Of a stretch of 64,000 nucleotides of DNA, positions 28,443 through 45,656 are shown piece by piece. Each line of letters begins with the position of its first letter. Position 1 is the stretch's first letter. Source of the DNA: Colwellia polaris (GTDB taxonomy: Archaea > Nanohalarchaeota > Nanosalinia > Nanosalinales > Nanosalinaceae); NCBI GenBank assembly GCA_047617785.1, contig JBLGBK010000002.1, positions 1 to 64,000 of the forward strand, read 5' to 3'. The position numbers and the translations under genes are program-made. The notes beneath the pieces were generated by a model, which saw nothing but the letters and a program-made list of their open reading frames with translations, was not told the DNA's origin and searched no databases.

Positions 28443-29219
28443 TTGAAAAGACCCGAGACCTCGTTTTTTATCGTGCAGCTTCCGCACATATTCAAGTCGA
28501 GAGAGAAAGAGAAGAAGTTTCTGAAATGGATTTTCATAATAGCAATAATTTTCTCCACATCATACTTTCTAACTGAGCCATATCATTACTTAATGTACAA
28601 CGTAGAGGCGATGAGAGACTTTATACAGAGCTTTGGAGTATTTGCGCCTCTAGTCCTGATCTTTTTACAGGTCAGCCAGGTGATTGTAGCGCCTATTCCC
28701 GGCCCTGTTGTAGGAGCCGCAGCAGGATATGCATTTGGAGTTTTCTGGGGTACAATATACGGATTTATCGGGCTAGCAATCGGAAGCAGCCTCGCAATAC
28801 TTTTCGCAAAACGTTACGGTCGACCTTTTGTCGAAGATATAGTAGCAGACGAAACTATGGATAAGTTCGACTATCTGGCAGAGGAGCACGGCTTTCTACC
28901 CTTCTTCCTGCTCTTCCTGCTTCCAGGATTCCCTGACGATGCTATATGCTTTATTGCAGGGCTAACAGATATTGATACAAAGAAACTGCTCCTCATGGCA
29001 AGCTTTGGAAGAGTGCCTGGTTTATTATCACTGACCGTTTTCGGCAACAGCCTTGCCATTGGAAACATGTCTATAATGATCCTAACAGGCGCTATAGTTA
29101 TTTTAGTTAGTGCTGGCGCATGGTATATGAGAGAAAACGTAGTACAGCCAGGAGAAAAAATCAGGAACCCTCTAAAAGCCATCAAAAAGAAGTTGTACAG
29201 CTGGAAAGAACAGGCTTAA
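28443..29219 (+). CDS. TVP38/TMEM64 (DedA/VTT) membrane protein; true start may be downstream
   Basis: APIPG, AGYAFG..WG, KRYGRPFV, LLPGFPDDAICFIAGL. Confidence 0.9.
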   Translation: MKRPETSFFIVQLPHIFKSREKEKKFLKWIFIIAIIFSTSYFLTEPYHYLMYNVEAMRDFIQSFGVFAPLVLIFLQVSQVIVAPIPGPVVGAAAGYAFGVFWGTIYGFIGLAIGSSLAILFAKRYGRPFVEDIVADETMDKFDYLAEEHGFLPFFLLFLLPGFPDDAICFIAGLTDIDTKKLLLMASFGRVPGLLSLTVFGNSLAIGNMSIMILTGAIVILVSAGAWYMRENVVQPGEKIRNPLKAIKKKLYSWKEQA

Positions 29220-29530
29220 AGAGCTGAAGCGAAAGATTCTGCTTTCAACTCTTTAGGCTTGATTTTCTCAGGAATATCAAGTTCCGCCACCGAGCTATCA
29301 TCGTGATAGATCTTTTTGACTGTTTTCCTCGCCACACCGTAGGAGCCTTGTCCAACAATCTCCTTGTAAATCTCAACCAAGTCCGTTACTGTTTCTGAGT
29401 TGATTTCACCCGATACTTCGGCTTTTACTACTTCTAAGCCTTCAACCTTCCCTGCTTGAGTGTAGGCTACATCTCCAAGCATATCCTGATAACCTTCTAT
29501 CAGCCGTTTTACAAGTTCTTTGTAGTCCAT
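29216..29530 (-). CDS. Small helical cytoplasmic protein, co-oriented with the membrane-protein gene upstream
   Basis: 104 aa; two similar LI/LV..Y..M/I.G motifs; 8 nt downstream of the membrane-protein gene. Confidence 0.7.
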   Translation of the reverse strand: MDYKELVKRLIEGYQDMLGDVAYTQAGKVEGLEVVKAEVSGEINSETVTDLVEIYKEIVGQGSYGVARKTVKKIYHDDSSVAELDIPEKIKPKELKAESFASAL

Positions 29531-29538
29531 TTGACTTT

Positions 29539-30228
29539 TTAATCTCCTATAAGACTTTCATATTTTGCTTGGATTTTGTTCCAGTAAGCTACGGAAACAA
29601 ATATGGATATCCACACAAGATTAGTTATTTCTCCGGCAATCATATACCCCATATTGTTGAGAATAGATGCAACCACCAAACAAAGAACTGTTCCTAAGCC
29701 AATTAAAGAAAGCTTCTTCCTCGTCTCTCCTTCCGTAATATATGCAGAGTAGAAGCTGCTTCCTGCTATAAATAATGCAGATATGGCCATACCCGCAGGA
29801 ATCAACATACTCAGTCCAGATTCACCATAATCAAAACCTCCAGATGCCGCAATAGCAACTTCCGGCATATTCAATATTCCGTAAATGCCTATAAAGACGC
29901 CATAGGCGACGAAAACCCAGAAAAGATTCTGGAAACGAGGAAAGTTAATACTGCTCTGCACCTTCCATAAGTATCCTACAGCCGTAAAAGCAAATATATG
30001 CGGTATTACATAGGCTAGAGACATTATCATATTGTTTCCTAGATAATATCCAACGCCTAGACCGGTCGCCATCAAACCAAAGAAAGGTATAGACCACGTC
30101 AAGAAGAATAAATAGAAATTCTTGAGCATTTCAACTTCTTTTTCTTGGTATTTTCTGTAGATAGCATAAAAACACATGAAAATCAATGCAGCCCAAAAGA
30201 GATGGCTGTATACAAGTAGAGGGAACAT
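29539..30228 (-). CDS. About 7-TM membrane protein, sensor/receptor-like, divergent from the giant adhesin
   Basis: Seven hydrophobic segments with RKKLSLIGLG before TM6; start placed at ATG 30228. Confidence 0.7.
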   Translation of the reverse strand: MFPLLVYSHLFWAALIFMCFYAIYRKYQEKEVEMLKNFYLFFLTWSIPFFGLMATGLGVGYYLGNNMIMSLAYVIPHIFAFTAVGYLWKVQSSINFPRFQNLFWVFVAYGVFIGIYGILNMPEVAIAASGGFDYGESGLSMLIPAGMAISALFIAGSSFYSAYITEGETRKKLSLIGLGTVLCLVVASILNNMGYMIAGEITNLVWISIFVSVAYWNKIQAKYESLIGD

Positions 30229-30533
30229 ATGAAACCATTTACAGACGTTAATTAAATTAATTTCTAGTACAAAAATCAAAATTGTAAAATTAGGCAGGGA
30301 AAAAATTTTACGAAGACTTACTGCCAGAAATAGAGGATGCGATAAAACATGAATGACGGAACTGAACGAAATAAGAACAGCTGACTTTTGAGGTATTTTG
30401 CTTCATTTATTAGCCACAACAGAACTGTTTTATCAACCTATTTTAATGAGAAACCCGCATCTTTGTCCATGATTGCAGCCTTTAAAATCAGTATTAGCCC
30501 TTTTAACAAACTAAAAAACACGGCAGGTTCTAG

Positions 30534-33500
30534 ATGAAGGAGAAAAAAAGCCTAATTATAGCCCTGACCGGCATACTTATCATTCCTTTAGCCTTGACTG
30601 CTTCAACAACTCTATCTAAGCAATCAGACTGGCAAGAAGGAGTATTTAAACAATCTACAGTCGACAGAGAGGATAATTCAGGCATTCTAGGGATAGGATA
30701 CGAAAATGGGACCTTGGAAGACCGTCTGAAAGGTTTCTGGAGACTAGACAAAACAACAGGCGATGTCATAGATTACTCTGAAGAAGGAAACAGTGGAGAG
30801 GCATACGGAGCTGATAGAAGTACAGAAGGAATACTTGGAACAAAGGGAACCCGTTTTGAAGGTAGTGCAGATGAAATAGTAATACCCGACGACTCGTCAC
30901 TGGACCTGAGCGAAGGATTCACTATCAACACCTGGGTGCAGGGAAATGAGATACTCGAAGTCGAGCCTTCTATGAGCAGCAACCCTGAAATATTCAGCAA
31001 AGGGAATTCCTACCGCCTTACAATCCAGAACGAAAATTACATAGCTTTCTCACAGAATTCTAACCTCAAACTAATGAACTCAACTGGTCACATAACTAAC
31101 CTCGGAGTCGACACCAAGGTCATAGGACCTCTATCAGACTATGACCGGGACGGATTAATTGACATACCTTATGTGGACGGTTCAGGCAACCTTAAAATAA
31201 TCAACAAGAACGGAAACACACAGAACCTAGAATCAGGAGCTAAGACTTCAAGTTCAACACTAGGAACAGGAGATCTTGACAGGGATGGAAGGAAAGAAAT
31301 TTACTACATCGACTCGTCTACCTCCGAAATCACAGGTTACAACTTCTCTTCAGGCACATCATCCCCAGTAGGAGCCGGAATAAAGAGTACAGCTATCTCA
31401 GGAGTTGCAGACTACGATGGAGATGGAAACAAAGATCTCGTCTTCCTTGACTCAGCGCAAACAATCAACTGGTACGATGGATCATCCGTACAGAGTACCG
31501 GTCTATCGATCGCAGGATCAAGCAGCTATCAGTACTGGATAGGCGGAACAACAGGGCCCGGAGTAGGAAAATATGCAAGCTCATGGACAGACCTCTCAGG
31601 AGAAGCAAATTCACCAACAAACAGCATTTACTCAGGAACTTATAACGGAAAGGCCTATTACCTAGGAGGTGGAAGCGGAGAAGTAACACGATGGGACGGC
31701 AGCTTCACAGATATCAGTCCAAGCTCAAGCAACAGTATAAATGCCATTTCATCAAGATCCTCTGAGGTAATGGCTGTAGCAGGAACAGATATTTTTCTAT
31801 ACGACACAAGTCAGGGGAGCTGGACACAGCCAACAACAGTAGACGCATCTGTAGATTCAGCTTCGAACTCTTACAGCAGTACAAATATTGGCGATTTCTG
31901 GCTTCTAGGACATGGAAGGACGAATCAACCTGGCGGAGTAAAATCTTATGTCAGCACCTTCGACGGCAGTACTGTCAATTACATAGACGGGGGATTCAGC
32001 AGCACAGTTACCGCGATCGACTTCAATGGAAATAAATATCTGACAGGGAGCAACAACGGGAGGTTGGCAACATATGACGGAACAAACTGGAATCAAATTA
32101 ACCAGAATAGTATAGGAACAGTTCATTCTATCAAGTGGGGAACCATAAACGGCGACTCATTTTGGCTTGTAGGCGGATCAAACGGAAATGTTCTGAAGGT
32201 GCAAGAGGACGGTACCACGACCACACTCAGCACAGGATTTGGGAACTCGGTAAGCTCAATCGGTTACTCTGGAGATAACGAAAAATTCTTGCTAGGAGAT
32301 GGAAACGGCAATGTAGCAAATTACACCTCAAACGGCCTCCAACAGACAAGCCAGAACGTATTCAGCAACTCTATAAGAACAATGATGTACAACCCAGCCT
32401 CATCAAGAAAGAAGATGGGAGAACCTTCAGATCTAGACAACGACGACGAAGTAGAGGTCCCTATTGTAACAGAGGGATCAGACCTGGCTCTCATACCTAG
32501 CTCAGGTTCAACTAACGTAATAGACTCAAGCTACGGAAGTGCAAAGGCTTCACCTCTAGGCACTGTTGACTGGACTGGAAACCCTTCAGAGGAAATCATC
32601 CATATCAACACTAACTCCGACACACTATATCTTTCAGATATCAGCGGTAACGAACAATCAATAACCGACTCAGGAGAGAACCAAGTAACCGGAATAGAAC
32701 AATCAACAGGAATATCCTCAGGCTCGATGCCCCAAGGAATACCTGTCCTCCAGATAAACGGACAGAAAGTACTGAACACCGGGGGTCAACCGCTCAATCC
32801 AGACAACTGGACAATGATAACCGCCAAATATGACGCCTCAACAGAGTCGGCCGAACTTTACTTCAACTCGACACTCATTGACTCAAAGACCGTCAATCTG
32901 GGAACAGTAAACCCGAATTCAAAAGACTTCAAGATAGCCAACGGAAAGCTTAACGCCACCATAGACGAAGTAAGAGTCTATAACGAATCTGTGACTTCAA
33001 GCCAAATAGACCGGCTATTCTTCAACGGAACTGATGGACAGTTCGATGGTGCCTACAACTCTACTATAGTAAATCCTGAAGGAAAGAAATCCTGGAGCCA
33101 ATTTATGATAGATGCCAATGAATCACCTGGTACCTCCGTTTCAGGTACAGTCTACTCTTTAGATGATGCTAATAATATCCTGAATGCCCAATCTATTACT
33201 ATCAATGACGGTAAAACTAACTACAGTATTTCAACTCTCCCAAATTCGAAGAAAATCAAGTTCTCATTCGACGGTTACAGCTCAGATATACAGAAGACCT
33301 GGGAGATTTTTGAGACACGTATATACTATGAAGACTCTCTAAAAGCAGGTAATATCACCAGTAGTGACTACAAAAACAAGCACAAGTTTAACATCTCAGC
33401 TACAGCCCGAGAAGCTGATTCAAACAGCAATATAAACGGATGTTCTGCCTATTATACCACTGATTCTCTCGAAGGTTATTTCGCAGTAGACGGAACGACT

Positions 33501-36500
33501 CTAAACTTAAGCTTTGGAAACGATAACCACGTCTCCTGTAACGCAACCATTGGTCCTGATCTAACTACCGTAGGCTACGGAGGAAGTAATTCTCCTCAGG
33601 CGACATTTAAGTTCAATTTCACGGATAACGACGGTTACACTGTCGGAACCATAAACCAGACAGAAACACTTCCGAACAACCAGCCAATCATCCTGAAAAC
33701 TAACCAGGAGGGCTCCTCAACAGACCACAGCTTCAATTTCTCAGCAGTAGCGAAGGATCAAGATGGTTCAGGAGACATCACCTCTTGCACAGTATACGCA
33801 GAGGACAATGATGGAAACCAGTATACAGCAAGTAATCTCAACACCTCATATGGAACCAGCACACAGGCATCATGTAACGCAACTATTTCGAGCTCCATAA
33901 ACGGTCTGGAAGTGGGAGAAGACATTCAGATGTACGCAGATTTCACCGATGTAGCAGGTACAACCTCATCGACCGCCATCTACACGCAGTCAATCCCTAA
34001 TCACAATCCAGAAATCGAGAGCGGTCCTAATCTTGAGAAAGTTTCAGGAGAACATGCCTTCAGCGTCTCAGCTGTAGCTTCGGACACTGATTCTGGAAGT
34101 TCTGAAATCAACTCATGCACAGTATACGCAGAAGATGGAGACGGAAACACCAAGGTTTTCTCAGGTTCAGGCCTTGTAGATCAAAGCTACGGAACAACAG
34201 ACCAGGCAAGCTGCAATACCTCCATAAGTAATTCTATAGAGAACTTCACTGTAGGGGAATCTATCACTGTTGACGTCAGCTTCTCTGATAAGCACGGAGC
34301 ACAGACAACAAACAACACTGGTACGAAAACAATACCTAACACGGCTCCAAGCAAACCCACAAACCTAAACATGACATACTTCCTACAAAACAACGCAGAT
34401 ATAAACCACGTAATAGACCACACACCAAAGATAAACTGGACCAATCCAACAGACCCAGAAGGAGACGCTATTACGATTAAAGCCTATACCGAGTCTTCAG
34501 CTAATCCTAACCAGCTGGACAACCAAACTAATTCAAGTTCAAGGCTAACTCTCGGGCAGAACATAGGTCTTAACGATGGAACCAGCTACAATGTAAGCCT
34601 TAGAGCATGCGATCCTTACAGCTGCAGCAACTACACCAACAACACAGAATTCACAATGAATGAAGAACCTTCTATCGAATCAGTAAGTCTGAATTACTCA
34701 AGCGTGACGGGAAGCGACTCTGTCAAACTGCAGGCAAACATTACCGACACAGACGATATTGACTCGGCGAACTACACATTATACAACCAGAGCTCGGGCG
34801 ACTTGATATATTCCAACAGTGAAGGGACTCTATCAGACCAGCTCTGGAACTCTGACTCCTTCGAAGTGCTCGCAGGAAACACTTACAACTGGACATTAAA
34901 GACCTCAGACGGATACCAAACAAGTAGCACAACAGGAACTTTCAGCGTATCAAACAGTCCTCCAGAAATACTTGAACCTCTTAATACTAGTGAATACTCC
35001 AATGCACATAAATTCAACGTATCAGCAGTAGCCTACGAACCTGATGGAGAAGTAAATATCAACAAATTCAACATAACACTTAATGATGGAGACGGAAACC
35101 AAGTCACATTCACAGAAAACGTGACAAAAAGCTACGGAAACAGTAGCGAAGTTGCAGCAAACTTCTCAAACGTAAACAGCTCGATTACCAGTGGATTTGA
35201 AATAAACGAAGAAATCAGCGTATCTATCAAATTCATCGACAAAGGTGGTAAAACAGCCTCGACCTCCGGAAACCAGAGAATACCGAACCAAGTTCCCGAG
35301 GTACCTCAGAACTTAAACATGACATACTTCCTACAAAACAACGCAGATATAAACCACGTAATAGACCACACACCAAAGATAAACTGGACTAATCCAACAG
35401 ACCCCGAGAATGATTCCGTAACCATCAAGGCTTATACAGGTCAGTCATCCCGCCCTACATCACCAGACAACAGCCTGAACCTGGGAAGCAACTACAGCAA
35501 CTCAGCAAGTCTAGACTTAGGTAACAGTGTAAGTCTAAGTGATGGAACCAGCTACAATGTAACTTTGATCGCATGTGATGATTACGGATGCAGCTCCAGA
35601 TCTGAAAATATAGAGTTCCACATGAACGAGGAACCAAACATAGAGAATACAGCACTCAACGACTCAAGCCCAACAGGAAGCGACTTCGTCAAACTACTAT
35701 CAAATGTGACAGATAACGAAGATTCAATTTCAGATGTTGCGTTTACGGTCTGGAATACAGATTCGAACAACAAAATAATTTCAAAGGAGCAGGGAGAGAA
35801 AATTGAGGGAGAATGGAATTCAAAAGAGTTTGAAGTCTTCGCATCCACCTCTTACAACTGGACAGTCAACGCAACAGACGGATACCAATACACTCTAGAC
35901 ACCGGAACCTTCAATGTCCCGAACAGCGGGCCTTCGATGGTATCAGGACCAAGCTTCCAGGACTATCAAGAAGGGCATAAATTCAACGTATCAGCAGTCG
36001 CAAAAGACGTTGACGGACAGGAAAACCTCGCCAACTACACAATACAGCTGGACGACGGAGAACAAACATATGAATATACAAAAGACGTGACCAGAAACTT
36101 TGGTAGCTCCAATGAGGTCGCAGCAAACTTCTCAAACGTAAACACCTCAATAGAAGGATTTGAAGTTGGAGAAACAATCTTCGTAACCTTAATATTCCGA
36201 GATAAATCTGGAGAAACCGCACAGAACTTTGAAAGTAATACTATACCCAACCATAAGCCCTCTTCAGCCTCAGAAATCAACATGGTAGAGCTACTAGAGC
36301 CGGGTACAGATCTACAGCACGTGATCGATCAGCAGCCAGAGATAAAATTTACAGCGCCCTCAGACCCTGACAAAGATAATATCACCTTCAGCATCTTCAC
36401 CGAATCCTCCTCTAACCCCTCACAACTAGACCGAGAAGTACTGATAACAGAAAATAACTACAGTAAAAGCCAGGAGATCGAGATAGGAAACCAGGTAAAC

Positions 36501-39500
36501 CTCAACGATGGAATTAGCTACAACTTCTCAGTTCAGGCCTGCGATCAATTCGGAAGCTGCACAACGAAAAGAAACATACAGGAGTTCCACACAAATCAGG
36601 AACCAACATTCAACTCTGTGGAGCTCAACAAATCAAGTTCAAATCTTGCAGATGGCGATAAAGTCCATCTTAAAGCCAATATTTCAGATGCAGAATCAGA
36701 TAGTATCGACTGGGCAAACTTCACAGTATACAATCAGACTGACAACGACAGACTAATCGACTCACTTAATGGATCAATAAACCAGAACGGAACCTGGATA
36801 TCAGATACATGGACCGTATCCACAGGAACGACCTACAACTGGACAGTCAACGCAACAGACGGATATGAAACCTCAGATACCTCAGGAACCTTCAAAACAA
36901 ACAATTCAAACCCCGAGATAGTTTCAGGACCAAGCTTCGATAATCTAGAAGGTAGACATGCCTTCGATGTGTCCGCAGTGGTCAGCGACGCAGACGGAGA
37001 AACAGATCTTGCAGATTATACGCTCATCCTAGAAGACGGAGACGGGAACCAGAAAACAATCGAGAAATCCATAACCAACACCGGTTATGGAAACTCAAAC
37101 GAAGCCACAATAAATTATTCAAGCGTGAACACTTCGATAAGCAACTTCCAAGTCAACGATGAGATACAGGCCACAATCACGGTAAGAGATACCTCAGGGG
37201 CTTCAGCCCAGACGCCGACAGAATCAAATACGATACCTAACACAGCTCCAAGCAAACCCACAAACCTAAACATGACATACTTCCTACAAAACAACGCAGA
37301 TATAAACCACGTAATAGATCAAACTCCGGAGATAAACTGGACTAATCCAACAGACCCCGAGAATGATTCCGTAACCATCAAGGCTTACACAGGACCTTCT
37401 CTGACGCCCACAAATCTCGACAACAGCATCTCAGGAGACAACAAGCTTTCGCTTGGACAAGAAGTCGAGATATTGGATGGGGATACCTACAATGTAAGAC
37501 TTCAGGCATGCGACCCCTACGAATGCAGCAGCTATACCAGCAATATCGAGTTCACAATGAACCAGGAACCTTTCATTGAAAGCGTGAAAGCTAACACCTC
37601 TCAAATAACTGGTTCAGACCAGATAAAGCTCGAAGCGAATATAACAGACAATCAAGACAGCATCAAGTGGGCAAACTTCACAGTATACAATCAGACTTCA
37701 GGAGAACTACTATTCCAGAACAAGAAAGGAACTCTAAACTCCGAACTCTGGACCTCAGAATCTTGGGAGACAAGATCTGACACGACCTACAACTGGACAG
37801 TCAACGCAACAGACGGATATCAGACAACCTATACTACCGGAACAATCACAGTAAACAACCAGCAACCAGACATAACAGATCTTTCCACAGAAAATTACCA
37901 AAATGGTCACAAGTTTAACATCTCAGCTACAGCAACAGATGCAGACGGTGCGATAAACATAGATCAATTCAATATAACATTAAGTGACGGAGACGGAAAC
38001 CACGAGGATATAAGGGCCTCAGTAAACCGCGACTTCGGAACTGAAAATCAGGCCGCACTCAATTACTCCAATATCAACGCTTCATACTTCCCTGACTTCG
38101 AAGTCGAGGAGACTCTCAGCATAGATGTAGAGGTTATCGACAGATCAGGAAGCTCATCAACATCATCTACAGAGAGCGCAATACCTAACCACGCGCCTAA
38201 CCTACCACAGAACCTTGAACTTGAAGTCGGAAACAAGAATTACGTGGTAAACCACAGCTTCAAGATCAATTGGACCGCACCCTCCGACAGCGATAACGAC
38301 AACCTCACAGTAAGGGCACACCTTGGAACCGATCAAGACCCGCTCACAGTAGAAAACAGCACCTCAATTACGCCGGGTAACTATGGAGAGGTAGACGAAC
38401 TTATCCTAGGAGGTAACAATGTTAATCTCCAGGACAACCAGGATTACAATATAGATCTGGTTGCGTGCGATAATTGGAGCTGTACATCTAGAGACACGAA
38501 TGCATCATTCCACATGAACCAAGAACCAAGGGTAGAATCAGTAAGACTCAATGAATCAGTAACAGAAGAAGCAGAATGGATCAAACTAATAGCGAATGTA
38601 ACACCAACAGACAATCCTATAAACGCAGCATTCTACGAAATCTGGAATCAGAGCTCACCACAACAACTTGTAGATGAAAAAATAGGATCAAGCGATGGAA
38701 AAACTTGGAATTCATCTAATTTCTACGGTAAATCGCTGCAGACCTACAACTGGACTTTCACAGCGAGCGACAGCTACGAAAACACAACATTAATGGACGT
38801 ATTCGACGTAGGGAACGCAGATCCAGAAATAACGAGAAGCATACAAACCTCAGACTTGAGCGATGAACACGGCTTCAATATCTCTATGAAAGTGAGAGAC
38901 CTAAACGGAGACAACGATCTCGCCAACTACACAGTAATAGCAGATGATGGAAACGGCAATACTCACCGCTACAAAGGAACATTCGCAGAAAATGGAGACG
39001 AATATGCATGGGCTAATTATTCGAACATAAACTCGAGTATTCCAGATTTTGAAGTAGGAGAAACGATATCTGTACAGATAATCGCAAGAGACCAGCATAA
39101 TCTGAAAGCATATTCTTCAACAGTATCGAACACAATACCTAATAGACAGCCTGTAATAACAGATATCAAACTGAAACCAGATAATCCTACGACAGAAGAC
39201 ACCCTGAACATCACCTATAAGGCCGAGGATCCAGAAAACGACACAATTACCAACAGCTTCTACGAATGGACCTCCAACTCATCCACCGTGTCCTCAAAGA
39301 TAGTCTCACCGACAGAAACTTCAAAAGACCAGCACTGGAATCTGAGTCTTCAGATAGTAGACGAGTACAACACATTAAGCCAAGAAAACACTTCACAGGA
39401 AACACTTGTAATCCAGAACTCTCCACCAGAAATCGCAAGAGCTCAAGAAGTAGAAAATGTAAGCAGAGAACATGCATACACAGTTTCAGCAATAGTTCAG

Positions 39501-42500
39501 GATCCAAATGGGGAAACAGACCTCGATGCCAACTGCGAAGTAACCGTAGAACATGAGACAAACAGCACAACAGCAACAAAGGCTATAGATACATCTTACT
39601 CCGGATCAGAAAAAGCCAAATGCGCCTACACAGTAAGCGCAGAAGATAAAAGCTGGATAAAACCAGGAGAAAAAGTAAACACAACCTTCAAGTTCACCGA
39701 TCAGAGCTCAGGAACTACAAGCACCAGTAAGAAGTCTGCAGAAGTTCCTAACAGAAAACCAAAAGTAACAGAACTAACAGCGCCATCTAACAACTCAGAA
39801 ACCAACAAGACAGAACTCAAATTTGATTGGAAAGCTCAGGACCCTGAGAAAGACAACCTAGAATACAAACTGAAAATATTCAATGAAACAGAAAATATAA
39901 TTACAGAAAAAGGTCTCACAAAGTCAGAAAAAGCTATTAGCAGCCTTCAGAGCTCAAATATAAAATGGCAGGTCACAGCCACAGATATCTACGGTGGGGA
40001 AACACTTTCATCTAGCACCTCCGAAAACTCAACAGTAGTTGTAGACTCAAAAGCTCCAGAAATTGTTGAAGGTCCAGCCATAGAGGTTATAAACTCTTCC
40101 AGAGATTACCCGCAACAAAATCAATCTGTAAAATGCTACTCGCGATGGCAGGACAACTTTGAACTAGGTAGCGCAAAAATATACGAAAACGCTACAGAGA
40201 CCAACCACACCATAACATCTAGCGACTTCAGTTCAGGATGGGCGAACGTAACAATCGCTGCAGGAGATCTAGAGGCCGGCAAGATAAGCTGCACCACCTA
40301 TGCTTCAGATCATCTCGACAATAAAGCATCAGACAGCAACACCTTCGAGGTAGAGGACATAGAGAAACCAAATATGACCGACTTCGATTACAGCCCTAAG
40401 ACTCCTGAAAAACTCGACCCCCAGAACCCTGTGGAAGTCAGCGCAAAGATAACCGACAACCTGAAGATAGAAAATGTTTCTCTTCTCTACCGTAAAGAAA
40501 ACGAGGAGAGCTGGAACTACGGCAACATAACGAATTCTGGAGATCTCTACACAGGAAACTTCACTCCTCAAACAGATAGTGCGACATACGACTTCAGACT
40601 CAAAGCTGTTGATACATATAATAACACCGAGGTTAGGAAAGCCTCCGTTAATGTAAGCTGGGATTATACCTGGAGCGGCTCACCTTCCGAATACAGCGGT
40701 TCAAGCACACTACAGGATAATTTAGTTGATTATACGCCGATAAAGATAGAGAATACTGGCGATTTCCCTCTCAAATACAACATAACTGCCGATACCGAAT
40801 CTAACCTGAACCTTAATATAGGAGATAGAGAATTTATCATCCCCTCCTCCGAATCAAAATCAATAAGTGTTGAAGCAAGTTTAGAAGAGAACAACGCTGA
40901 TGACGAAGGTATATACTCCTTCGATATAACTGTAAACTCTGAAAACACAACTGCTAACCCTTCACAGGGAACTATAGAAAGTCAGGCAACTTTCACTCTA
41001 GATGCCCCGTTCCTATCAATGGAGAAAGCTTCAAAATTCCCACTATCAGCATCGCAGGGAACAACAGGCGTTGAACTTCCTGTAGATACCACCAACGTAG
41101 GTACACAGTCAGCAGAAGGAGGCAGCATAAGCTACGAAATCCCAACCTCCTGGGAATTAAGCAGCGGAAACCTCAACCAAGAACTTGGAGATATGAATGT
41201 TGACGAGACAGAAACCTCGAGCATCAGTGTCAACATACCCGGAGATACTTCTACAGGAACTAAACAAATAAACATGACTGCAACCACCACAAACAGAACC
41301 TTTAGTCAAAGCTTCCAGATAGATATCACAGAGAATGAGACAACCACAATTGTCGAAGACGGTGGTGGAGGAGGCTTCGGAGGAGGTTCCGGCCCGACTT
41401 CACAAGAACAGGTTGAACAACGTTCAGATCAGATTTTCAACACCAGCGAAAGCTTTGAAATTGTAAGAGGAGAAGACCAGAACTTCACAGTTCGTTTCCA
41501 GAACCCTACAAAATTCAACCTCACCAATATAACCGCAAACGTTGAGGGAATCCAGTCTCAATACCTCCAACTAGAAAACCCATATCTTGGAAGAGTGAAT
41601 ATAAACGAATCAAAGAACATCACCGTGAAGATAACCGCCCCAGAATACTTCCAAACCGGCAATTACAACTTGAATTTCAACATCACCGGAAAAGGCATCG
41701 ACGGACAAGGCGCATTTGCAGACCATTTCGGTTTCACACTGAACAAGGATATATCTCTCGGAGTAAGAGCTATTCCACGACAGAATGCCTCCACCTACCT
41801 TAATGAAACCAAAGAAATTCTCAATCAGATGAATAGAAGCAACCTAAGAACAAGCGAGATTGAAGAGCTTATCAGCGAGGCAGAGAACAATATCGAATCC
41901 GGAAACTATGCAGAAGTGCAGAAAAGCTATCAAGAAGCACAGTCAAGATACCAGACTGCCCAAGAAACACGCCAAGGCCTGACAGAGCTTGAAAGCCAGA
42001 TTAATTCAGCTGAAGCATCAGGACTCGATGTCGGACGCGCTCGACAGGTCGCAAGCCTAGCAGAGGCAGCCATGGAAAGAGGTGCGTACACAACAGCTGC
42101 CGATAGGCTGGAGGAAGCTCAGAACATCTACCAGTTGGAGACTGCGGGAGAAGTTAACTGGATCTATGAGATCCGGTCCAATTGGAAGAAGATACTATCC
42201 GGACTAATCATAATAGGAATAGCCGGATTCTTGGCGCGACTAAGGTATCGACTCTACAGAATCAGAAGCAGACTGAAAGATCTCAAGTCAAAGGAGAAGA
42301 ACATAGAAGACCTCAAAATACAGAAACAGAAGAAAGCATTCGAAGAGAAAGATATCTCGCTTTCAGAATACGAGGATAGCATAGAGGACTACAACAACCA
42401 GATTATCGAAATAATCGAAGAACGTGTCGCATTACAGGCGGAAGAAGCTAATATAAGCAACTTCAAGAGACGCAACAGCCTAGCGCAGGAGAGAGATCGT

Positions 42501-42722
42501 CTCAACGAACTTATCAGAGAGACACAACAAGACTATATCAAAGGAAATATCAGCGACACAGACGTATATGAGAAGAAAGTTGAAGAGTTAACCGGCCGGC
42601 TTTCAGAGATTGAAGGAGAAATAGCGGAGATAGATGCAGAGGCAGAAGTAAGATCAGAGAGCCGCCTAGGTCGGATAATGGAGAAAATACCGATAATTTC
42701 AACAGGAGGTAAAGTGCAGTGA
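30534..42722 (+). CDS. Giant (4062 aa) cell-surface adhesin-like glycoprotein: signal peptide, LamG/ConA-like and beta-propeller head, repeated Ig/FnIII-like modules, helical stalk, TM, cytoplasmic coiled coil
   Basis: N-terminal signal; FWRLD...FTINTWV...IDEVRVYN (LamG); DxDxDG Ca-binding loops; five ~320-aa modules with ACDxxxC; very many N-x-S/T sequons; TM ILSGLIIIGIAGFLA near 42190-42240. Confidence 0.88.
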   Translation: MKEKKSLIIALTGILIIPLALTASTTLSKQSDWQEGVFKQSTVDREDNSGILGIGYENGTLEDRLKGFWRLDKTTGDVIDYSEEGNSGEAYGADRSTEGILGTKGTRFEGSADEIVIPDDSSLDLSEGFTINTWVQGNEILEVEPSMSSNPEIFSKGNSYRLTIQNENYIAFSQNSNLKLMNSTGHITNLGVDTKVIGPLSDYDRDGLIDIPYVDGSGNLKIINKNGNTQNLESGAKTSSSTLGTGDLDRDGRKEIYYIDSSTSEITGYNFSSGTSSPVGAGIKSTAISGVADYDGDGNKDLVFLDSAQTINWYDGSSVQSTGLSIAGSSSYQYWIGGTTGPGVGKYASSWTDLSGEANSPTNSIYSGTYNGKAYYLGGGSGEVTRWDGSFTDISPSSSNSINAISSRSSEVMAVAGTDIFLYDTSQGSWTQPTTVDASVDSASNSYSSTNIGDFWLLGHGRTNQPGGVKSYVSTFDGSTVNYIDGGFSSTVTAIDFNGNKYLTGSNNGRLATYDGTNWNQINQNSIGTVHSIKWGTINGDSFWLVGGSNGNVLKVQEDGTTTTLSTGFGNSVSSIGYSGDNEKFLLGDGNGNVANYTSNGLQQTSQNVFSNSIRTMMYNPASSRKKMGEPSDLDNDDEVEVPIVTEGSDLALIPSSGSTNVIDSSYGSAKASPLGTVDWTGNPSEEIIHINTNSDTLYLSDISGNEQSITDSGENQVTGIEQSTGISSGSMPQGIPVLQINGQKVLNTGGQPLNPDNWTMITAKYDASTESAELYFNSTLIDSKTVNLGTVNPNSKDFKIANGKLNATIDEVRVYNESVTSSQIDRLFFNGTDGQFDGAYNSTIVNPEGKKSWSQFMIDANESPGTSVSGTVYSLDDANNILNAQSITINDGKTNYSISTLPNSKKIKFSFDGYSSDIQKTWEIFETRIYYEDSLKAGNITSSDYKNKHKFNISATAREADSNSNINGCSAYYTTDSLEGYFAVDGTTLNLSFGNDNHVSCNATIGPDLTTVGYGGSNSPQATFKFNFTDNDGYTVGTINQTETLPNNQPIILKTNQEGSSTDHSFNFSAVAKDQDGSGDITSCTVYAEDNDGNQYTASNLNTSYGTSTQASCNATISSSINGLEVGEDIQMYADFTDVAGTTSSTAIYTQSIPNHNPEIESGPNLEKVSGEHAFSVSAVASDTDSGSSEINSCTVYAEDGDGNTKVFSGSGLVDQSYGTTDQASCNTSISNSIENFTVGESITVDVSFSDKHGAQTTNNTGTKTIPNTAPSKPTNLNMTYFLQNNADINHVIDHTPKINWTNPTDPEGDAITIKAYTESSANPNQLDNQTNSSSRLTLGQNIGLNDGTSYNVSLRACDPYSCSNYTNNTEFTMNEEPSIESVSLNYSSVTGSDSVKLQANITDTDDIDSANYTLYNQSSGDLIYSNSEGTLSDQLWNSDSFEVLAGNTYNWTLKTSDGYQTSSTTGTFSVSNSPPEILEPLNTSEYSNAHKFNVSAVAYEPDGEVNINKFNITLNDGDGNQVTFTENVTKSYGNSSEVAANFSNVNSSITSGFEINEEISVSIKFIDKGGKTASTSGNQRIPNQVPEVPQNLNMTYFLQNNADINHVIDHTPKINWTNPTDPENDSVTIKAYTGQSSRPTSPDNSLNLGSNYSNSASLDLGNSVSLSDGTSYNVTLIACDDYGCSSRSENIEFHMNEEPNIENTALNDSSPTGSDFVKLLSNVTDNEDSISDVAFTVWNTDSNNKIISKEQGEKIEGEWNSKEFEVFASTSYNWTVNATDGYQYTLDTGTFNVPNSGPSMVSGPSFQDYQEGHKFNVSAVAKDVDGQENLANYTIQLDDGEQTYEYTKDVTRNFGSSNEVAANFSNVNTSIEGFEVGETIFVTLIFRDKSGETAQNFESNTIPNHKPSSASEINMVELLEPGTDLQHVIDQQPEIKFTAPSDPDKDNITFSIFTESSSNPSQLDREVLITENNYSKSQEIEIGNQVNLNDGISYNFSVQACDQFGSCTTKRNIQEFHTNQEPTFNSVELNKSSSNLADGDKVHLKANISDAESDSIDWANFTVYNQTDNDRLIDSLNGSINQNGTWISDTWTVSTGTTYNWTVNATDGYETSDTSGTFKTNNSNPEIVSGPSFDNLEGRHAFDVSAVVSDADGETDLADYTLILEDGDGNQKTIEKSITNTGYGNSNEATINYSSVNTSISNFQVNDEIQATITVRDTSGASAQTPTESNTIPNTAPSKPTNLNMTYFLQNNADINHVIDQTPEINWTNPTDPENDSVTIKAYTGPSLTPTNLDNSISGDNKLSLGQEVEILDGDTYNVRLQACDPYECSSYTSNIEFTMNQEPFIESVKANTSQITGSDQIKLEANITDNQDSIKWANFTVYNQTSGELLFQNKKGTLNSELWTSESWETRSDTTYNWTVNATDGYQTTYTTGTITVNNQQPDITDLSTENYQNGHKFNISATATDADGAINIDQFNITLSDGDGNHEDIRASVNRDFGTENQAALNYSNINASYFPDFEVEETLSIDVEVIDRSGSSSTSSTESAIPNHAPNLPQNLELEVGNKNYVVNHSFKINWTAPSDSDNDNLTVRAHLGTDQDPLTVENSTSITPGNYGEVDELILGGNNVNLQDNQDYNIDLVACDNWSCTSRDTNASFHMNQEPRVESVRLNESVTEEAEWIKLIANVTPTDNPINAAFYEIWNQSSPQQLVDEKIGSSDGKTWNSSNFYGKSLQTYNWTFTASDSYENTTLMDVFDVGNADPEITRSIQTSDLSDEHGFNISMKVRDLNGDNDLANYTVIADDGNGNTHRYKGTFAENGDEYAWANYSNINSSIPDFEVGETISVQIIARDQHNLKAYSSTVSNTIPNRQPVITDIKLKPDNPTTEDTLNITYKAEDPENDTITNSFYEWTSNSSTVSSKIVSPTETSKDQHWNLSLQIVDEYNTLSQENTSQETLVIQNSPPEIARAQEVENVSREHAYTVSAIVQDPNGETDLDANCEVTVEHETNSTTATKAIDTSYSGSEKAKCAYTVSAEDKSWIKPGEKVNTTFKFTDQSSGTTSTSKKSAEVPNRKPKVTELTAPSNNSETNKTELKFDWKAQDPEKDNLEYKLKIFNETENIITEKGLTKSEKAISSLQSSNIKWQVTATDIYGGETLSSSTSENSTVVVDSKAPEIVEGPAIEVINSSRDYPQQNQSVKCYSRWQDNFELGSAKIYENATETNHTITSSDFSSGWANVTIAAGDLEAGKISCTTYASDHLDNKASDSNTFEVEDIEKPNMTDFDYSPKTPEKLDPQNPVEVSAKITDNLKIENVSLLYRKENEESWNYGNITNSGDLYTGNFTPQTDSATYDFRLKAVDTYNNTEVRKASVNVSWDYTWSGSPSEYSGSSTLQDNLVDYTPIKIENTGDFPLKYNITADTESNLNLNIGDREFIIPSSESKSISVEASLEENNADDEGIYSFDITVNSENTTANPSQGTIESQATFTLDAPFLSMEKASKFPLSASQGTTGVELPVDTTNVGTQSAEGGSISYEIPTSWELSSGNLNQELGDMNVDETETSSISVNIPGDTSTGTKQINMTATTTNRTFSQSFQIDITENETTTIVEDGGGGGFGGGSGPTSQEQVEQRSDQIFNTSESFEIVRGEDQNFTVRFQNPTKFNLTNITANVEGIQSQYLQLENPYLGRVNINESKNITVKITAPEYFQTGNYNLNFNITGKGIDGQGAFADHFGFTLNKDISLGVRAIPRQNASTYLNETKEILNQMNRSNLRTSEIEELISEAENNIESGNYAEVQKSYQEAQSRYQTAQETRQGLTELESQINSAEASGLDVGRARQVASLAEAAMERGAYTTAADRLEEAQNIYQLETAGEVNWIYEIRSNWKKILSGLIIIGIAGFLARLRYRLYRIRSRLKDLKSKEKNIEDLKIQKQKKAFEEKDISLSEYEDSIEDYNNQIIEIIEERVALQAEEANISNFKRRNSLAQERDRLNELIRETQQDYIKGNISDTDVYEKKVEELTGRLSEIEGEIAEIDAEAEVRSESRLGRIMEKIPIISTGGKVQ
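34332..37387 (+). repeat. Near-exact DNA repeat patches among adhesin modules
   Basis: 34332-34417 vs 37233-37318 (1 mismatch); 34366-34441 = 35314-35389; 35378-35434 = 37331-37387. Confidence 0.9.
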
Positions 42723-44002
42723 AGAAGACAACAATTCTGCTGACACTTGTACTTTTCACAGGCTTAACAACAGCACAGTCAGCGAACGAAACACAGCAAG
42801 CACTTCAACAAGCTGAAAGCGACATCCAGTTGATGGAGGAAGAAGATATACCAACTGAACGAGTTACGAATCTCTTAGAAACAGCGAACAACTCCTATCT
42901 TGCGCAGAGAAACTTTGAGAATGAAGGAGGAACTGCAGATTACTCGCGCGTCAAGGAGCTTACCCAACAGATCAGCGATATACAGGAGAGAGCGATAAGA
43001 GTCTCCGACAGGATAAGCGCACTGGATATGAGATTGAAAGAGCTGGAAAACACAAGCGTCAACCTTTCATCAGCGGAAAACGAACTAAATGCTGCAAAAG
43101 ATGATTTCCAAAGCCAGAGATTTGAGGAGGCGGAGGGTCATGTCGAATCAGGCTATTCAGCGATATCCGAGGCACAGTCCGCACGTACACAGGTAGAGAG
43201 CTTTGCCGCAGCACAGCAGGAAGACATAGTGGCACAGATAAACATATTTATAGATTATCTGAGAGCAAATCCTACTAAAGTCGGCGGAAGCACAGCTCTC
43301 GGACTTCTAGCCATGATATCATTCTGGAAGGAGTTCAACACATATCGACTGATTAAACGAAGAAAGCGGAAAACCGTCAAAGAAGAAGTTCTGGAGCGTT
43401 TGATTACAGACAGCCAAAAAGAGTACTACATGCGGAAAGAAGGCTCACCTATACAGTTCAACACCAAGATGAACCGATTCGAGGATCTACGGAGAAACGT
43501 AGTCGAAGATATCGAAATAATAGATGGTAAACTGGAGAACCGGCACTCTCTACTCTTTGATCCGGAAGAACCTACGCAGGAAGAAGTCGAAATTGATGAA
43601 ACAATAGAAGAATCGGCAGAAACTGAAAAAGAAGAACAAGTGAAGAAAGAACAGGAGCAGCAAAAGCCCGTAGAAGTAATTGATACCGAAGACGAAACTG
43701 AAGATCAAACCGAGGAGGTCAGCGAAAGCAGCAAAAATGAAGAACAGGAAGAAGCTGAAGACACACAGGATATGGATAACGAAGAGAGTGAAGACAAGGA
43801 AGAGGAAAGTGAAGAGAACAACGAGCTAGTATGTGATGAATGTGGCGAAGAATTTGAAACAGAGCGCGGACTTAGCATCCACAGAGAAAGAACTCATGAT
43901 TCAGAGATTCAGGCCGAAGGCGTTGTATGTCCTGTATGCGGAGATGTTTTCGATACTGAAAGAGGCATGCATATCCACAGAGGAGAAGTTCACAAGGATT
44001 AG
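42719..44002 (+). CDS. Membrane protein resembling the adhesin anchor module, with an acidic tail and two C2H2 zinc fingers
   Basis: Signal peptide, helical ectodomain, TM, acidic linker, CDECGEEFETERGLSIHRERTH and CPVCGDVFDTERGMHIHRGEVH; GTGA start/stop overlap with the adhesin gene. Confidence 0.85.
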   Translation: MKKTTILLTLVLFTGLTTAQSANETQQALQQAESDIQLMEEEDIPTERVTNLLETANNSYLAQRNFENEGGTADYSRVKELTQQISDIQERAIRVSDRISALDMRLKELENTSVNLSSAENELNAAKDDFQSQRFEEAEGHVESGYSAISEAQSARTQVESFAAAQQEDIVAQINIFIDYLRANPTKVGGSTALGLLAMISFWKEFNTYRLIKRRKRKTVKEEVLERLITDSQKEYYMRKEGSPIQFNTKMNRFEDLRRNVVEDIEIIDGKLENRHSLLFDPEEPTQEEVEIDETIEESAETEKEEQVKKEQEQQKPVEVIDTEDETEDQTEEVSESSKNEEQEEAEDTQDMDNEESEDKEEESEENNELVCDECGEEFETERGLSIHRERTHDSEIQAEGVVCPVCGDVFDTERGMHIHRGEVHKD

Positions 44003-44994
44003 AACATTCCTCCGGAATCATCGTTTCCGCTTCCGAAGAAGTTGTCATTATGTCTGACATTTAATCCCAGTCCGCCTTCTATTGTCATTGGTGCGATCTT
44101 CTCTTCAAAGTTAGTACCACGCATCTTGTAAATCTGTATTCCGCGTGAGCTCTGCTGCTTGTACATAAGGATTACTCCATCAGCTAGGAACTCTGCATGG
44201 CCTGTTTCAGTAATCTGATCCGGTATAGTCTGAGATTCAGCAATTACAAAGGATGTAACACCAATATCGCGGAAGAGATCGAACAGTTCTCTAACATATA
44301 GCCTGTAGTTCTTGGACTTTTCTGAAAAGCCTGCTGAGATAGCTGATAGTGAGTCAACGATTACACGGTCGAAGGATTCTTCATCCTCATCTAGATCGCC
44401 AAACATCAGCGGTTTAGTATCGATTTCGAGCTCTCCGCTCTGTTTCTTGAACAACGCTTCTACTGTACGGGATACGTCGAACGGGTCGTACGTTTCAATT
44501 ACTAAATTGCCGTCATCAACGTGCTTCTGCCCGTCCCAGCCGAAGTCTTCCATGTGGCTAATTAAAGCGTCTGGCGATTCCTCGAAGCTCATGAATAGTA
44601 CTTTTTCGCCGTTTTCAGCAGCATGGTTGGCCATATGAAGGTTGAATATTGATTTACCCGATCCTGGGTTTCCTGCGATTAATGTAACGTTCCGCTTTCT
44701 TATTCCATCGCCGAAGAGATTATCGATTCCGTTTATACCTGTACGGAGATAGTTTTCTTTCTTGCCTGCTGATATTCCGTCGTCATCTTCCTCGGATGAG
44801 TTATCGCTTCCGTCGTCGTTGTTGAATTCTGACCATGGGTTCTCATCTTCAGAATCACTATCAACTTCTGAGTCTTCCTGCCATTCTCCGACTCTGTTCG
44901 GGTTAATATCTTCGTGTTTTGCGGAGACATGGGCTTTCAATGCTTTCAAAGTTGGAAAGTCATGGCCACATTTCTTACACTCCATGGTGTTCAT
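43999..44994 (-). CDS. KaiC/RAD55-like (COG0467) ATPase with an N-terminal C2H2 zinc finger
   Basis: CKKCGHDFPTLKALKAHVSAKH; TGINGIDNL, GNPGSGKS, SFEE, VIVDSL, ADGVI, KMRGT. Confidence 0.92.
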   Translation of the reverse strand: MNTMECKKCGHDFPTLKALKAHVSAKHEDINPNRVGEWQEDSEVDSDSEDENPWSEFNNDDGSDNSSEEDDDGISAGKKENYLRTGINGIDNLFGDGIRKRNVTLIAGNPGSGKSIFNLHMANHAAENGEKVLFMSFEESPDALISHMEDFGWDGQKHVDDGNLVIETYDPFDVSRTVEALFKKQSGELEIDTKPLMFGDLDEDEESFDRVIVDSLSAISAGFSEKSKNYRLYVRELFDLFRDIGVTSFVIAESQTIPDQITETGHAEFLADGVILMYKQQSSRGIQIYKMRGTNFEEKIAPMTIEGGLGLNVRHNDNFFGSGNDDSGGMF

Positions 44995-45101
44995 GATACA
45001 AATGCACCTGTTTCAAACTTAAAGTTTTCTTAAAACGGTTCAACAGCGCTTGAAACCAGAAAATTTAATAACAAGGAACTTACTGACTTCGTTATAGAAA
45101 C

Positions 45102-45656
45102 ATGGAATTTCCTGAAGAACTTGAAGAACTGGAAAGGGGAAAACCAGTATTTGTATCAACAGAGTCTCCTGATCTACGAGAACTTGTAAACACGCTTATA
45201 GAGAAAATTACAGAGGATGAAAAGCTTGTAGTGTATATAGGAAGTATTAAAACCAGTAAGAAAGTCAAAAGCATGCTGAAAGAAAGAGATATAGACCTGA
45301 AGAAGATTCTATTCTTCGACATGGCAACAAAGGTTACAGGCTCAGCTCCTGACGACGTGGAAAACACTGTATTCTTCGACCCTGAAGATATCAACCAGGT
45401 TAACATGCAACTCGACGACGCGGTAGACGCAGTACCAGAAGACCGAGAAGCCGTGATAGTATTCGACACAATATCAACACTGTCAATATACAACGATAAA
45501 GAAGTAATAATCAAGTTCTTGAAAAGCCTGAGTTCAAAGATGGATAACTGGGACGTATCCTCAGTTCTACTCGGAGTAGAGAGCGAAATGAGCGACGAAC
45601 TTACGGAGGCTGTGGAAGATTCTGTTGAAGAAACAATCGATGCAACCAGCGAATAG
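45102..45656 (+). CDS. Inactivated KaiC/RecA-fold protein (DUF835/DUF7504-like)
   Basis: Retains VVYI, ILFFD, VIVFDTISTL and IIKFL elements but has no Walker A; divergent from the KaiC-like gene. Confidence 0.7.
   Translation: MEFPEELEELERGKPVFVSTESPDLRELVNTLIEKITEDEKLVVYIGSIKTSKKVKSMLKERDIDLKKILFFDMATKVTGSAPDDVENTVFFDPEDINQVNMQLDDAVDAVPEDREAVIVFDTISTLSIYNDKEVIIKFLKSLSSKMDNWDVSSVLLGVESEMSDELTEAVEDSVEETIDATSE

Follow-up and report, generated by a model that had tools for sequence, protein, structure and literature searches.

Six contiguous open reading frames (ORFs) were analysed in region 29216-45656 of a 64,000-nucleotide (nt) stretch of nanohaloarchaeal DNA, hereafter the window (contig JBLGBK010000002.1). 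The genome, designated G000, is represented by an assembly of 787 kb in 22 contigs. Four of the six genes form a surface-to-cytoplasm module, consisting of a giant surface protein, a headless paralogue of its membrane anchor, a KaiC-like ATPase and an inactivated KaiC-fold protein (iKaiC); the other two are an adjoining, unrelated two-gene cassette. An earlier account of this DNA, made from the letters alone (the sequence-only reading), had listed six genes here, and all six ORFs were confirmed to be open at the coordinates that it gave. The G+C content of the stretch, 0.42-0.45, is unremarkable. In the following, G-handles denote genomes and L-handles denote loci, and comparisons within the class refer to 70 genomes from 32 genera. 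The features of the module are listed below, with the basis of each in parentheses.

30534..42722, + strand: giant surface protein, 4062 amino acids (aa) (ORF and translation, Pfam, repeat spacing)
41730..42722, + strand: C-terminal stalk-transmembrane (TM)-tail module of the giant, last ~330 aa (hhalign against the anchors, tail sequences)
42719..44002, + strand: headless anchor paralogue, 427 aa (ORF, Pfam, hhalign, AlphaFold2 (AF2) model)
43832..43993, + strand: two C2H2 fingers at the cytoplasmic C-terminus of the anchor, residues 372-393 and 404-425 (zf-C2H2_4 27.9 bits, regular expression)
43999..44994, - strand: single-domain KaiC-like ATPase, 331 aa (PF06745, motif alignment)
44914-44979, - strand: N-terminal C2H2 finger of the KaiC-like ATPase, residues 6-27 (pattern C-x2-C-x12-H-x4-H)
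45102..45656, + strand: iKaiC, inactivated KaiC-fold protein, 184 aa (alignment, AF2 model, Foldseek)

The giant protein is composed, in order, of a signal-like N-terminus, an FG-GAP/propeller-like region, a LamG-like region, five super-repeats, NEW3, a Gly-rich linker and the stalk-TM-tail module. Pfam matches were obtained for FG-GAP_3 and NPCBM_assoc (NEW3), and for no other family. The super-repeats, of ~320 aa each, are made up of Ig-like modules and have a spacing of 311-330 aa, and 139 N-x-S/T sequons are present in the protein. The signal-like N-terminal segment suggests ordinary Sec export. At the opposite end, the C-terminal module contains a helical ectodomain, a TM helix (residues 3888-3906) and a 156-aa cytoplasmic tail that is predicted to form a coiled coil. 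As in other tails of the giant type, a hairpin motif, Q-x2-Y-[YF/L]...G-x-[IL]-[ST], is present twice. The length of the giant varies among close relatives. A protein from the same genus has 2213 aa (L024:216-6857) and is 30-44% identical in parts, and the giant in another genus has 4057 aa at 64% identity, the 64% identity in G008 (genus g7) extending over the full length. This variation fits modular gain and loss of the Ig-like super-repeats.

The GTG start codon of the anchor gene overlaps the TGA stop codon of the giant gene (GTGA), and a GGAGG sequence is situated 10 nt upstream. The encoded protein consists of an N-terminal hydrophobic segment, a five-helix ectodomain, a TM helix, a cytoplasmic helical hairpin, an acidic disordered linker of ~90 aa and the two C2H2 fingers. 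BLASTP of the anchor against the giant gave no significant match, and a profile comparison took its place. When a profile of nine anchors was compared with one of six giant C-termini using hhalign, a match was obtained with a probability of 98.9% and an E value of 2.5e-17; the 216 aligned columns are collinear and take in the TM helix. This match identifies the anchor as a free-standing copy of the last ~330 residues of the giant. Both the translational coupling and the paralogy asserted in the sequence-only reading are upheld.

In the AF2 model of the anchor, the five helices of the ectodomain are predicted with confidence (pLDDT ~90-96 for residues 22-160), and the TM helix is continuous with a cytoplasmic helix, after which the chain turns sharply (residues 238-243) and runs back as a further helix. 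It is around this turn that the family is conserved: among 12 aligned anchors Q233 is invariant and Y236 is nearly so, and the fuller motif is Q-x2-Y-[YF]-x2-G-x-[IL]-[ST]-x3-[YF]. As modelled, the anchor resembles chemoreceptors and sensor kinases in its hydrophobic N-terminus, its helical ectodomain of ~160 aa and the continuity of its TM and cytoplasmic helices. A further likeness is found at one relative locus (L081), where a dCache-HAMP protein lies between the KaiC and iKaiC genes. Unlike those receptors, the anchor contains no HAMP, kinase or methyl-accepting chemotaxis protein (MCP) signalling domain that could be found in Pfam scans, and its model gave no match in the PDB at E<=0.001 using Foldseek, the sole confident local match being that of the zinc finger to fingers of CTCF/ZFAT. 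A Pfam scan at E<=10 of the tails and of three distant anchors returned no family, which leaves a SHOCT-like identity for the tail motif unsupported.

Members of the stalk-TM-tail family are recognized by an ectodomain made of helices, by one TM helix and by a Q-x2-Y-[YF] hairpin in the cytoplasm; all three features are found in the giant and the anchor. Of 1.84 billion, 1,938 representatives fall within the family at E<=1e-3, and a threshold of E<=1e-30 leaves 726. No Pfam model covers it, and its members, where named at all, are named only 'hypothetical'.

The KaiC gene is convergent with the anchor gene, and their 3' ends overlap by 4 nt. Its product matches PF06745 (COG0467) over residues 84-314 with a score of 142.7 bits, compared with a cut-off of 26.6. 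The Walker A sequence (GNPGSGKS, residues 108-115), E138/E139 and D214 of Walker B are invariant in 26 aligned relatives, and the protein is predicted, by its motifs, to be catalytically intact. The N-terminal C2H2 finger is followed by an acidic linker. Identity with the KaiC of the circadian clock (CI+CII, with KaiA/KaiB) was rejected: the 331 aa contain one RecA-like domain, and no KaiB-like thioredoxin-fold neighbour was found among the genes examined.

The iKaiC gene is divergent from that of KaiC, with 107 nt between the two starts. The AF2 model of iKaiC has a pLDDT of 90.4, and its best Foldseek matches in the PDB are the archaeal KaiC/RecA-like proteins PH0284, SSO2452 and FlaH (entries 2dr3, 2w0m and 4yds), with E values of about 1e-6 and TM-scores of 0.63-0.75; the FlaH structures 4yds and 4wia are both among the best fold matches. 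An alignment read by eye reveals that the P-loop, G-x4-GK[ST], is absent from the aligned region of all 18 iKaiC homologues. Only D73, D122 and F139 are invariant in these homologues, D122 being a retained Walker-B-like Asp. The Pfam scores of the window protein are all below the cut-offs (KaiC, 22.5 against 26.6; DUF7504, 23.3 against 27; DUF835, 22.9 against 33.1), and the homologue in L069 scores above two of them (DUF7504, 30.1; KaiC, 29.0). The sequence-only reading had called this a RecA-fold protein without Walker A, and that description was correct. The term 'iKaiC' for a P-loop-less protein of the KaiC fold is taken from the literature (PMC5847659). Two small membrane proteins of ~105-110 aa are encoded between KaiC and iKaiC in genus g7, on the iKaiC strand (L026:3579-4232, + strand), with counterparts of 101 and 108 aa in L066:7184-7819; they belong to no Pfam family, and are absent from the 107-nt KaiC-iKaiC gap of the window.

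Within the class, orthologues of the zinc-finger KaiC (ZnF-KaiC) were found, at E<=1e-35, in 9/70 genomes and 6/32 genera, and a search with the anchor alignment detected the anchor family in 14/70 genomes. A stand-alone anchor is present in 11 genomes, in one of which (G057) it lies at a contig edge, and in 9 of the 11 the ZnF-KaiC gene is no more than one gene away. Gene order, giant-anchor-KaiC-iKaiC, is conserved in G001 and G002, from the genus of G000, and in G008 and G024, from genus g7. The neighbourhood is syntenic throughout family f1, with Hel308, FBPase, DeoC, VTT and SHMT genes, and since these housekeeping flanks are conserved there too, linkage within f1 alone is weak evidence.

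Three genomes from other families (G026, G039 and G025) have an anchor and a KaiC gene in quite different flanks. The first has an anchor-like gene, a giant-like gene (1771 aa) and a convergent ZnF-KaiC gene, flanked by LemA/M48 and an InlB-repeat protein. In the second, the anchor is convergent with ZnF-KaiC beside PolB and an IS605-type gene. In the third, the same convergent pair lies beside LeuRS, and the anchor begins at base 32 of the contig, which leaves no upstream sequence in which a giant could have been seen. A decayed locus was observed in G037 (L095:9371-10149), with LemA/M48 and InlB-repeat flanks that match those of G026. Here an 87-aa ZnF-KaiC stub overlaps a 210-aa anchor stub, and the giant is gone. 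KaiC and anchor have decayed together in this genome, which was counted in favour of a functional tie.

The KaiC protein was used to scan a set with one genome for each species, and 29 loci were obtained, six of them nanohaloarchaeal repeats of known places. The 23 others, four of which are shorter than 5 kb, derive from metagenome-assembled genomes labelled Woesearchaeota, Nanoarchaeota, Aenigmatarchaeota, Thermoplasmatota, 'Methanosarcinales' or 'archaeon', and in the segment that matches best, their KaiC domains share 35-50% identity with the query. These loci were located by KaiC alone, and in 11 of the 23 a neighbouring gene product is matched by hidden Markov models (HMMs) of the anchor or of the giant C-terminus. 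BLAST clustering revealed two further loci with a related large protein that is cut off at the end of the locus. Genomes that show the linkage include ones labelled Woesearchaeota, Nanoarchaeota, Aenigmatarchaeota and Thermoplasmatota. As a control, the two HMMs were applied to G000 (1793 ORFs of at least 70 aa), where they match only the giant and the anchor, plus one marginal ORF at an E value of 0.0019. Homologues of iKaiC are present in 12/23 of the outside loci, and in 14 of a second count set of 26 non-redundant loci. A metagenome scan with a four-sequence anchor alignment returned its own source locus alone.

The distant large proteins keep the architecture LamG, NEW3, stalk-TM-tail. 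In L074, L083 and L084, the giant module and a complete anchor module are fused in one ORF, and in L086 the genes for KaiC, giant, anchor, a receiver domain (REC) and iKaiC follow one another on the same strand, neighbouring genes being spaced or overlapping by 4-240 nt. Stand-alone REC proteins or a CheB-like protein occur in 6/26 non-redundant loci, the protein between KaiC and iKaiC in L081 is of the dCache_3-HAMP membrane type, and a ParA/MinD-like ATPase is encoded between anchor and giant in L069 and L070.

The association was also approached from the other side, in a Woesearchaeota-labelled order. The anchor family was found in 9/81 genomes, always as an anchor plus a large protein, and in 8/9 the KaiC that best matches the alignment in that genome (E<=1e-100) is encoded no further than about 6 kb from the anchor, on its contig; in G144 it is on another contig. 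The chance expectation is ~1% per genome (12 kb of about 1.3 Mb). One genome, G073, has a second locus, also with a KaiC of its own.

These data bear on whether the genes might be together without any functional tie, through inherited synteny or hitch-hiking on a mobile island. The shared flanks of family f1, the patchy distribution (14/70 and 9/81 genomes) and the IS605-type transposase beside the G039 copy are in keeping with such an origin. Against it, the association outlasts complete replacement of the flanks and rearrangement of the genes across phyla, the genes are found fused and in a same-strand array, and the reverse test gave 8/9 genomes where ~1% per genome would be expected. An origin of this kind is therefore considered highly improbable. 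The association of KaiC, iKaiC, giant and anchor across archaeal phyla is real and old, and the recurrence of this set in many distantly related archaea makes it very probable that the four genes work as one surface-to-cytoplasm unit.

The zinc fingers of the locus were analysed further. The two fingers of the anchor match zf-C2H2_4 at 27.9 bits, compared with a cut-off of 27, and fit the classical C2H2 pattern as used here, C-x2-C-x3-hydrophobic-x5-hydrophobic-x2-H-x3-5-H. In the KaiC finger the pattern is present and the Pfam profile is weak (16.5 bits, E value 0.014). All three fingers had been read from the sequence beforehand, and all three are borne out as sequence patterns. The anchor pair is present only in G000 and G002 and is absent in G001, G008, G024, G026, G039 and G025. 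The KaiC finger occurs in every full-length orthologue seen in the class. Across the genome of G000, classical C2H2 fingers were found in 8 of the 1793 ORFs. Seven of the eight encode membrane proteins, in which an acidic linker connects a TM helix to a finger predicted to lie in the cytoplasm, KaiC being the sole soluble one. Besides the anchor, the seven comprise two large surface proteins, namely one of 1443 aa (window 362-4693, + strand) and a CARDB protein of 891 aa, a pair of DsbA-like proteins and a pair of small proteins anchored by tail or head. Since seven membrane proteins carry cytoplasmic C2H2 tails, the fingers are a habit of the lineage and not a matched pair specific to this locus; a role for the anchor fingers as the specific partner of the KaiC finger was rejected on this ground and on their absence from most anchors. 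The fingers look like a lineage-wide cytoplasmic 'tag'.

Outside the class, the KaiC finger is absent and the N-terminus of the ATPase is instead a winged helix with a Lys-rich linker, or a short basic stretch. A double winged helix-turn-helix (wHTH) head is supported by Pfam in L071, and wHTH-like heads were read by eye in L072, L075, L076 and L079. In L083, L084, L086, L087 and L088, the short basic N-terminus contains no recognizable DNA-binding domain. Heads of the DNA-binding type, C2H2 or wHTH, are what would be expected if KaiC were an ATP-dependent regulator acting in cis on the giant-anchor operon, having no contact with the membrane proteins and remaining linked to them simply as regulator and target. 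The separate transcription of KaiC in the window agrees with this, as does the occurrence of the same type of KaiC at a type IV pilus locus (L088, L090), where it could serve as a general regulator of surface structures; KaiC ATPases linked to type IV pili have been proposed as such regulators (PMC4858521). A cis regulator would leave unexplained why the cytoplasmic hairpin is among the best-conserved parts of the otherwise fast-evolving giant and anchor, and why a second, headless stalk-TM-tail copy has been retained, and it is at odds with the several orthologues listed above that have no recognizable DNA-binding domain. We regard it as unlikely.

The reading that we favour is that KaiC and iKaiC form a signalling hub, docked on the hairpins of a hetero-oligomer of giant and anchor, which acts by way of the DNA-binding head or, in relatives, by way of receiver domains. 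This preference is based on the exchange of head domains, on the signalling-type proteins encoded nearby and on the known biology of the family, and the reading is judged to stand just on the probable side. In this mechanism, the giant and the headless anchor would co-assemble through their helical stalks to give a hetero-oligomeric membrane anchor, and the latter would expose several conserved helical hairpins to the cytoplasm. KaiC and iKaiC, as a cytoplasmic hub, would dock on these hairpins, and through its ATPase or phosphorylation state the hub would link the condition of the surface protein, whether assembled or engaged, with an output. Gene expression is the most likely output, in view of the nucleic-acid-binding type of the ATPase head (C2H2 here, winged helix in the Woesearchaeota-labelled relatives). 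The receiver domains, the dCache-HAMP sensor and the ParA/MinD ATPase that are added in relatives are as expected for a signalling or positioning hub.

A number of observations weigh against the docked-hub reading. Besides the conserved flanks of family f1, mentioned above, iKaiC was not found next to KaiC in G026, G039 or G025, and the locus in G039 lacks a giant. G040, a genome that is 69% complete, has giant and anchor, with no KaiC within 3.3 kb or detected elsewhere in the genome. KaiC in the window is convergent to the giant-anchor pair and is not co-transcribed with it. In L088 and L090, KaiC and iKaiC lie beside a type IV pilus locus with neither giant nor anchor, from which it follows that the hub is not dedicated to the giant surface protein. 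Finally, the contact of the tails with KaiC or iKaiC is one that we infer, and it is from the domain type alone that the C2H2 or wHTH head is assumed to bind DNA. A complex prediction with KaiC residues 75-331, iKaiC and anchor tail residues 205-290 (score 0.00, mark 0.32) gave no answer, neither for nor against.

A more specific form of signalling can be envisaged, namely outside-in adhesion signalling with an integrin-like logic. Engagement of the host by the giant would be transmitted through the TM helices, the hairpins would hold or release KaiC/iKaiC, and the head would reprogramme transcription. This version is tentative, and on present evidence improbable. The sequence-only reading had likewise proposed a signalling system coupled to attachment, with all six genes as its parts; the four linked genes and the signalling-type neighbours (REC, dCache-HAMP) at distant loci support it in part, the sensing of host contact and the control of adhesin assembly, positioning or release that it envisaged being putative, and the 7-TM protein and small protein drop out of it. 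Conservation of the neighbourhood, whose absence that reading had named as grounds for refutation, gave the same division, the giant, anchor, KaiC and iKaiC genes being linked in independent contexts within and beyond the class and the other two genes not.

The converse arrangement, from the inside out, would make KaiC/iKaiC an ATPase that acts on the tails of the giant in assembly, insertion, positioning or turnover, and not a signalling device. Other nanohaloarchaeal giants carry or neighbour P-loop ATPases, such as the VirB4/TraG-like domain of SPEARE-type proteins (PMC10266531). The intact ATPase motifs of the KaiC-like protein would also suit a motor, as would the ParA/MinD-like ATPase that L069 and L070 encode between their anchor and giant. 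The REC, dCache-HAMP and DNA-binding heads of relatives point instead to signalling, and the signal-like N-terminus of the giant suggests that its export is of the ordinary Sec type. The known members of the KaiC family (ArlH, GvpD and KaiC) are, moreover, regulators or scaffolds and not translocases. A motor of this kind is thus considered decidedly unlikely.

KaiC-like ATPases and iKaiC proteins were reportedly described as archaeal signal-transduction hubs by Makarova, Galperin & Koonin in 2017. The presence of KaiC/iKaiC hubs beside surface structures is a published prediction (PMC4858521 and PMC5847659). The present locus agrees with what is described there in having a single-domain KaiC ATPase and a P-loop-less KaiC-fold protein beside genes for a surface structure, with variable REC and HTH domains in relatives. 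It differs in the partner, which is here a giant LamG/Ig-like/NEW3 protein with an unnamed stalk-TM-tail module, together with a headless copy of that module. A search of the literature found no linkage of KaiC to LamG or giant surface proteins, although the supplements of the 2017 hub paper, which lay outside the search, may list such neighbourhoods; nor did it find C2H2 fingers in nanohaloarchaea or a C2H2 head on KaiC. Another paper, Makarova 2015 (PMC5898192), concerns a different, MoxR/vWA system, and the word KaiC is absent from it.

The archaellum protein ArlH (FlaH), which acts with ArlX/ArlCDE and ArlI, offers a second comparison, in that a KaiC-fold protein is located at the cytoplasmic face of a surface machine, by a membrane-anchored coiled-coil protein. 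Unlike the case of ArlH, no ArlI/ArlJ-type genes were found among the neighbours examined at 23.8-51.6 kb, and unlike that of the archaellum, the membrane partner here has a large ectodomain and a coiled coil that is largely outside the cell. Identity with ArlH/FlaH was rejected, there being no archaellum operon; the neighbours are SHMT, ThyX, VTT, Hel308, FBPase and DeoC. GvpD is a KaiC-family P-loop regulator encoded in the haloarchaeal gas-vesicle structural gene cluster, and the ATPase of the window resembles it in belonging to the KaiC family, in having a P-loop and in the location of its gene beside that of a structural protein. Identity with GvpD was likewise rejected, in view of a GvpD_P-loop score of 19.9 bits against a cut-off of 24 and the lack of gvp neighbours.

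Hamm et al. (2019) are said to have reported the SPEARE-type proteins, giant membrane-anchored proteins of Nanohaloarchaeota. The giant of the window is like these in being a large, strain-variable nanohaloarchaeal surface protein that is anchored by a C-terminal TM helix, ends in a cytoplasmic coiled coil and is associated with a cytoplasmic P-loop ATPase; a role in host contact is presumed. According to the available part of their description (Reva/La Cono et al. 2023, PMC10266531), SPEARE-type proteins have 5,000-9,400 aa, an in-chain C-terminal VirB4/TraG-like ATPase domain and a VirB4-like gene downstream; that part of the description contains no headless paralogue. The giant studied here, unlike them, has no ATPase domain, its ATPase partner being a separate KaiC-family gene and the downstream gene being the anchor. 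A SPEARE-type identity was rejected on the basis of its Pfam content, limited to FG-GAP_3 and NPCBM_assoc, and of its 156-aa coiled-coil tail.

DPANN archaea live attached to hosts, and this locus ties a strain-variable giant to KaiC/iKaiC, proposed as the main signalling hub of archaea. Because the link holds across several phyla, the tail motif, the headless partner and the ATPase with its swappable head provide a concrete target for experiment, for which cultivated pairs of nanohaloarchaeon and host exist. The stalk-TM-tail family of about 1,900 representatives, without a Pfam model, is newly defined. Were the outside-in reading true, it would be the first pathway by which DPANN symbionts have been proposed to sense contact, and would be built on a large unnamed protein family.

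The two genes that adjoin the module are as follows.

29539..30279, - strand: 7-TM membrane protein, 246 aa as listed (hydropathy, distribution, context)
29216..29530, - strand: small acidic protein, 104 aa (its gene follows the 7-TM gene immediately wherever the two are found)

Seven non-overlapping hydrophobic 19-mers were identified at residues 19-231 of the larger protein, which bears out the ~7-TM topology assigned to it by the sequence-only reading. Translation probably begins near M17, as the alignments with homologues start at residues 16-19. The smaller protein has no Pfam match. The 7-TM protein is present in 7/70 genomes of the class, and forms a tight pair with the small protein in G002, G024 and G005. 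The pair occupies the same syntenic stretch in G024 as in the window, and DHFR, an unknown ORF and ThyA are found there instead in G008, from the same genus as G024. In G005, the pair occurs with neither a giant nor a ZnF-KaiC orthologue nearby. Since the pair occurs without the module in G005 and is missing beside the giant in G008, both proteins were rejected as parts of the module and are regarded as an independent two-gene cassette. In structural terms, the Atlas places the 7-TM protein near 7TM input modules from histidine kinases and from GGDEF and GerE proteins (TM-scores 0.65-0.74), and a sensor role of its own may be suggested by these neighbours, as a lead only. Its nearest feature clusters contain archaeal proteins without names, found most often in Promethearchaeota.

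The neighbours examined at 23.8-51.6 kb are housekeeping genes on both sides, with SHMT, ThyX and a VTT-domain protein on the left and an intein-containing Hel308-type helicase, FBPase and DeoC on the right. The sequencing runs listed for the stretch are 18 DNA runs and no RNA run. The ORFs of G000 outside the window that carry C2H2 fingers are located at C7:37525-40200, C2:102666-103043, C2:104515-105420, C2:114895-115728 and C6:34821-35243. A second, divergent KaiC/KaiC-like (DUF7504) pair is present in the same genome (L092; G000:C7:6082-9334), followed by an Arf/Ras-like small GTPase and a Roadblock/LC7 protein, and represents a separate KaiC hub.

A swap of thymidylate synthases was observed at one syntenic site, which is occupied by a 564-aa ThyX in G000 and G002 (window 26722-28416, + strand) and by DHFR and ThyA in G008. 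The coordinates of the site in relatives are L022:13621-16011 and L058:1397-4884, the ORFs of G024 at this site being matched by size only. The Hel308-type helicase (window 45700-49365, + strand) contains an intein of ~455 aa with a LAGLIDADG domain and an HTH, inserted after residue ~424. Its orthologues in G001 and G002, of 760-761 aa, have no intein, and that in G008 has a diverged insert in the same place.

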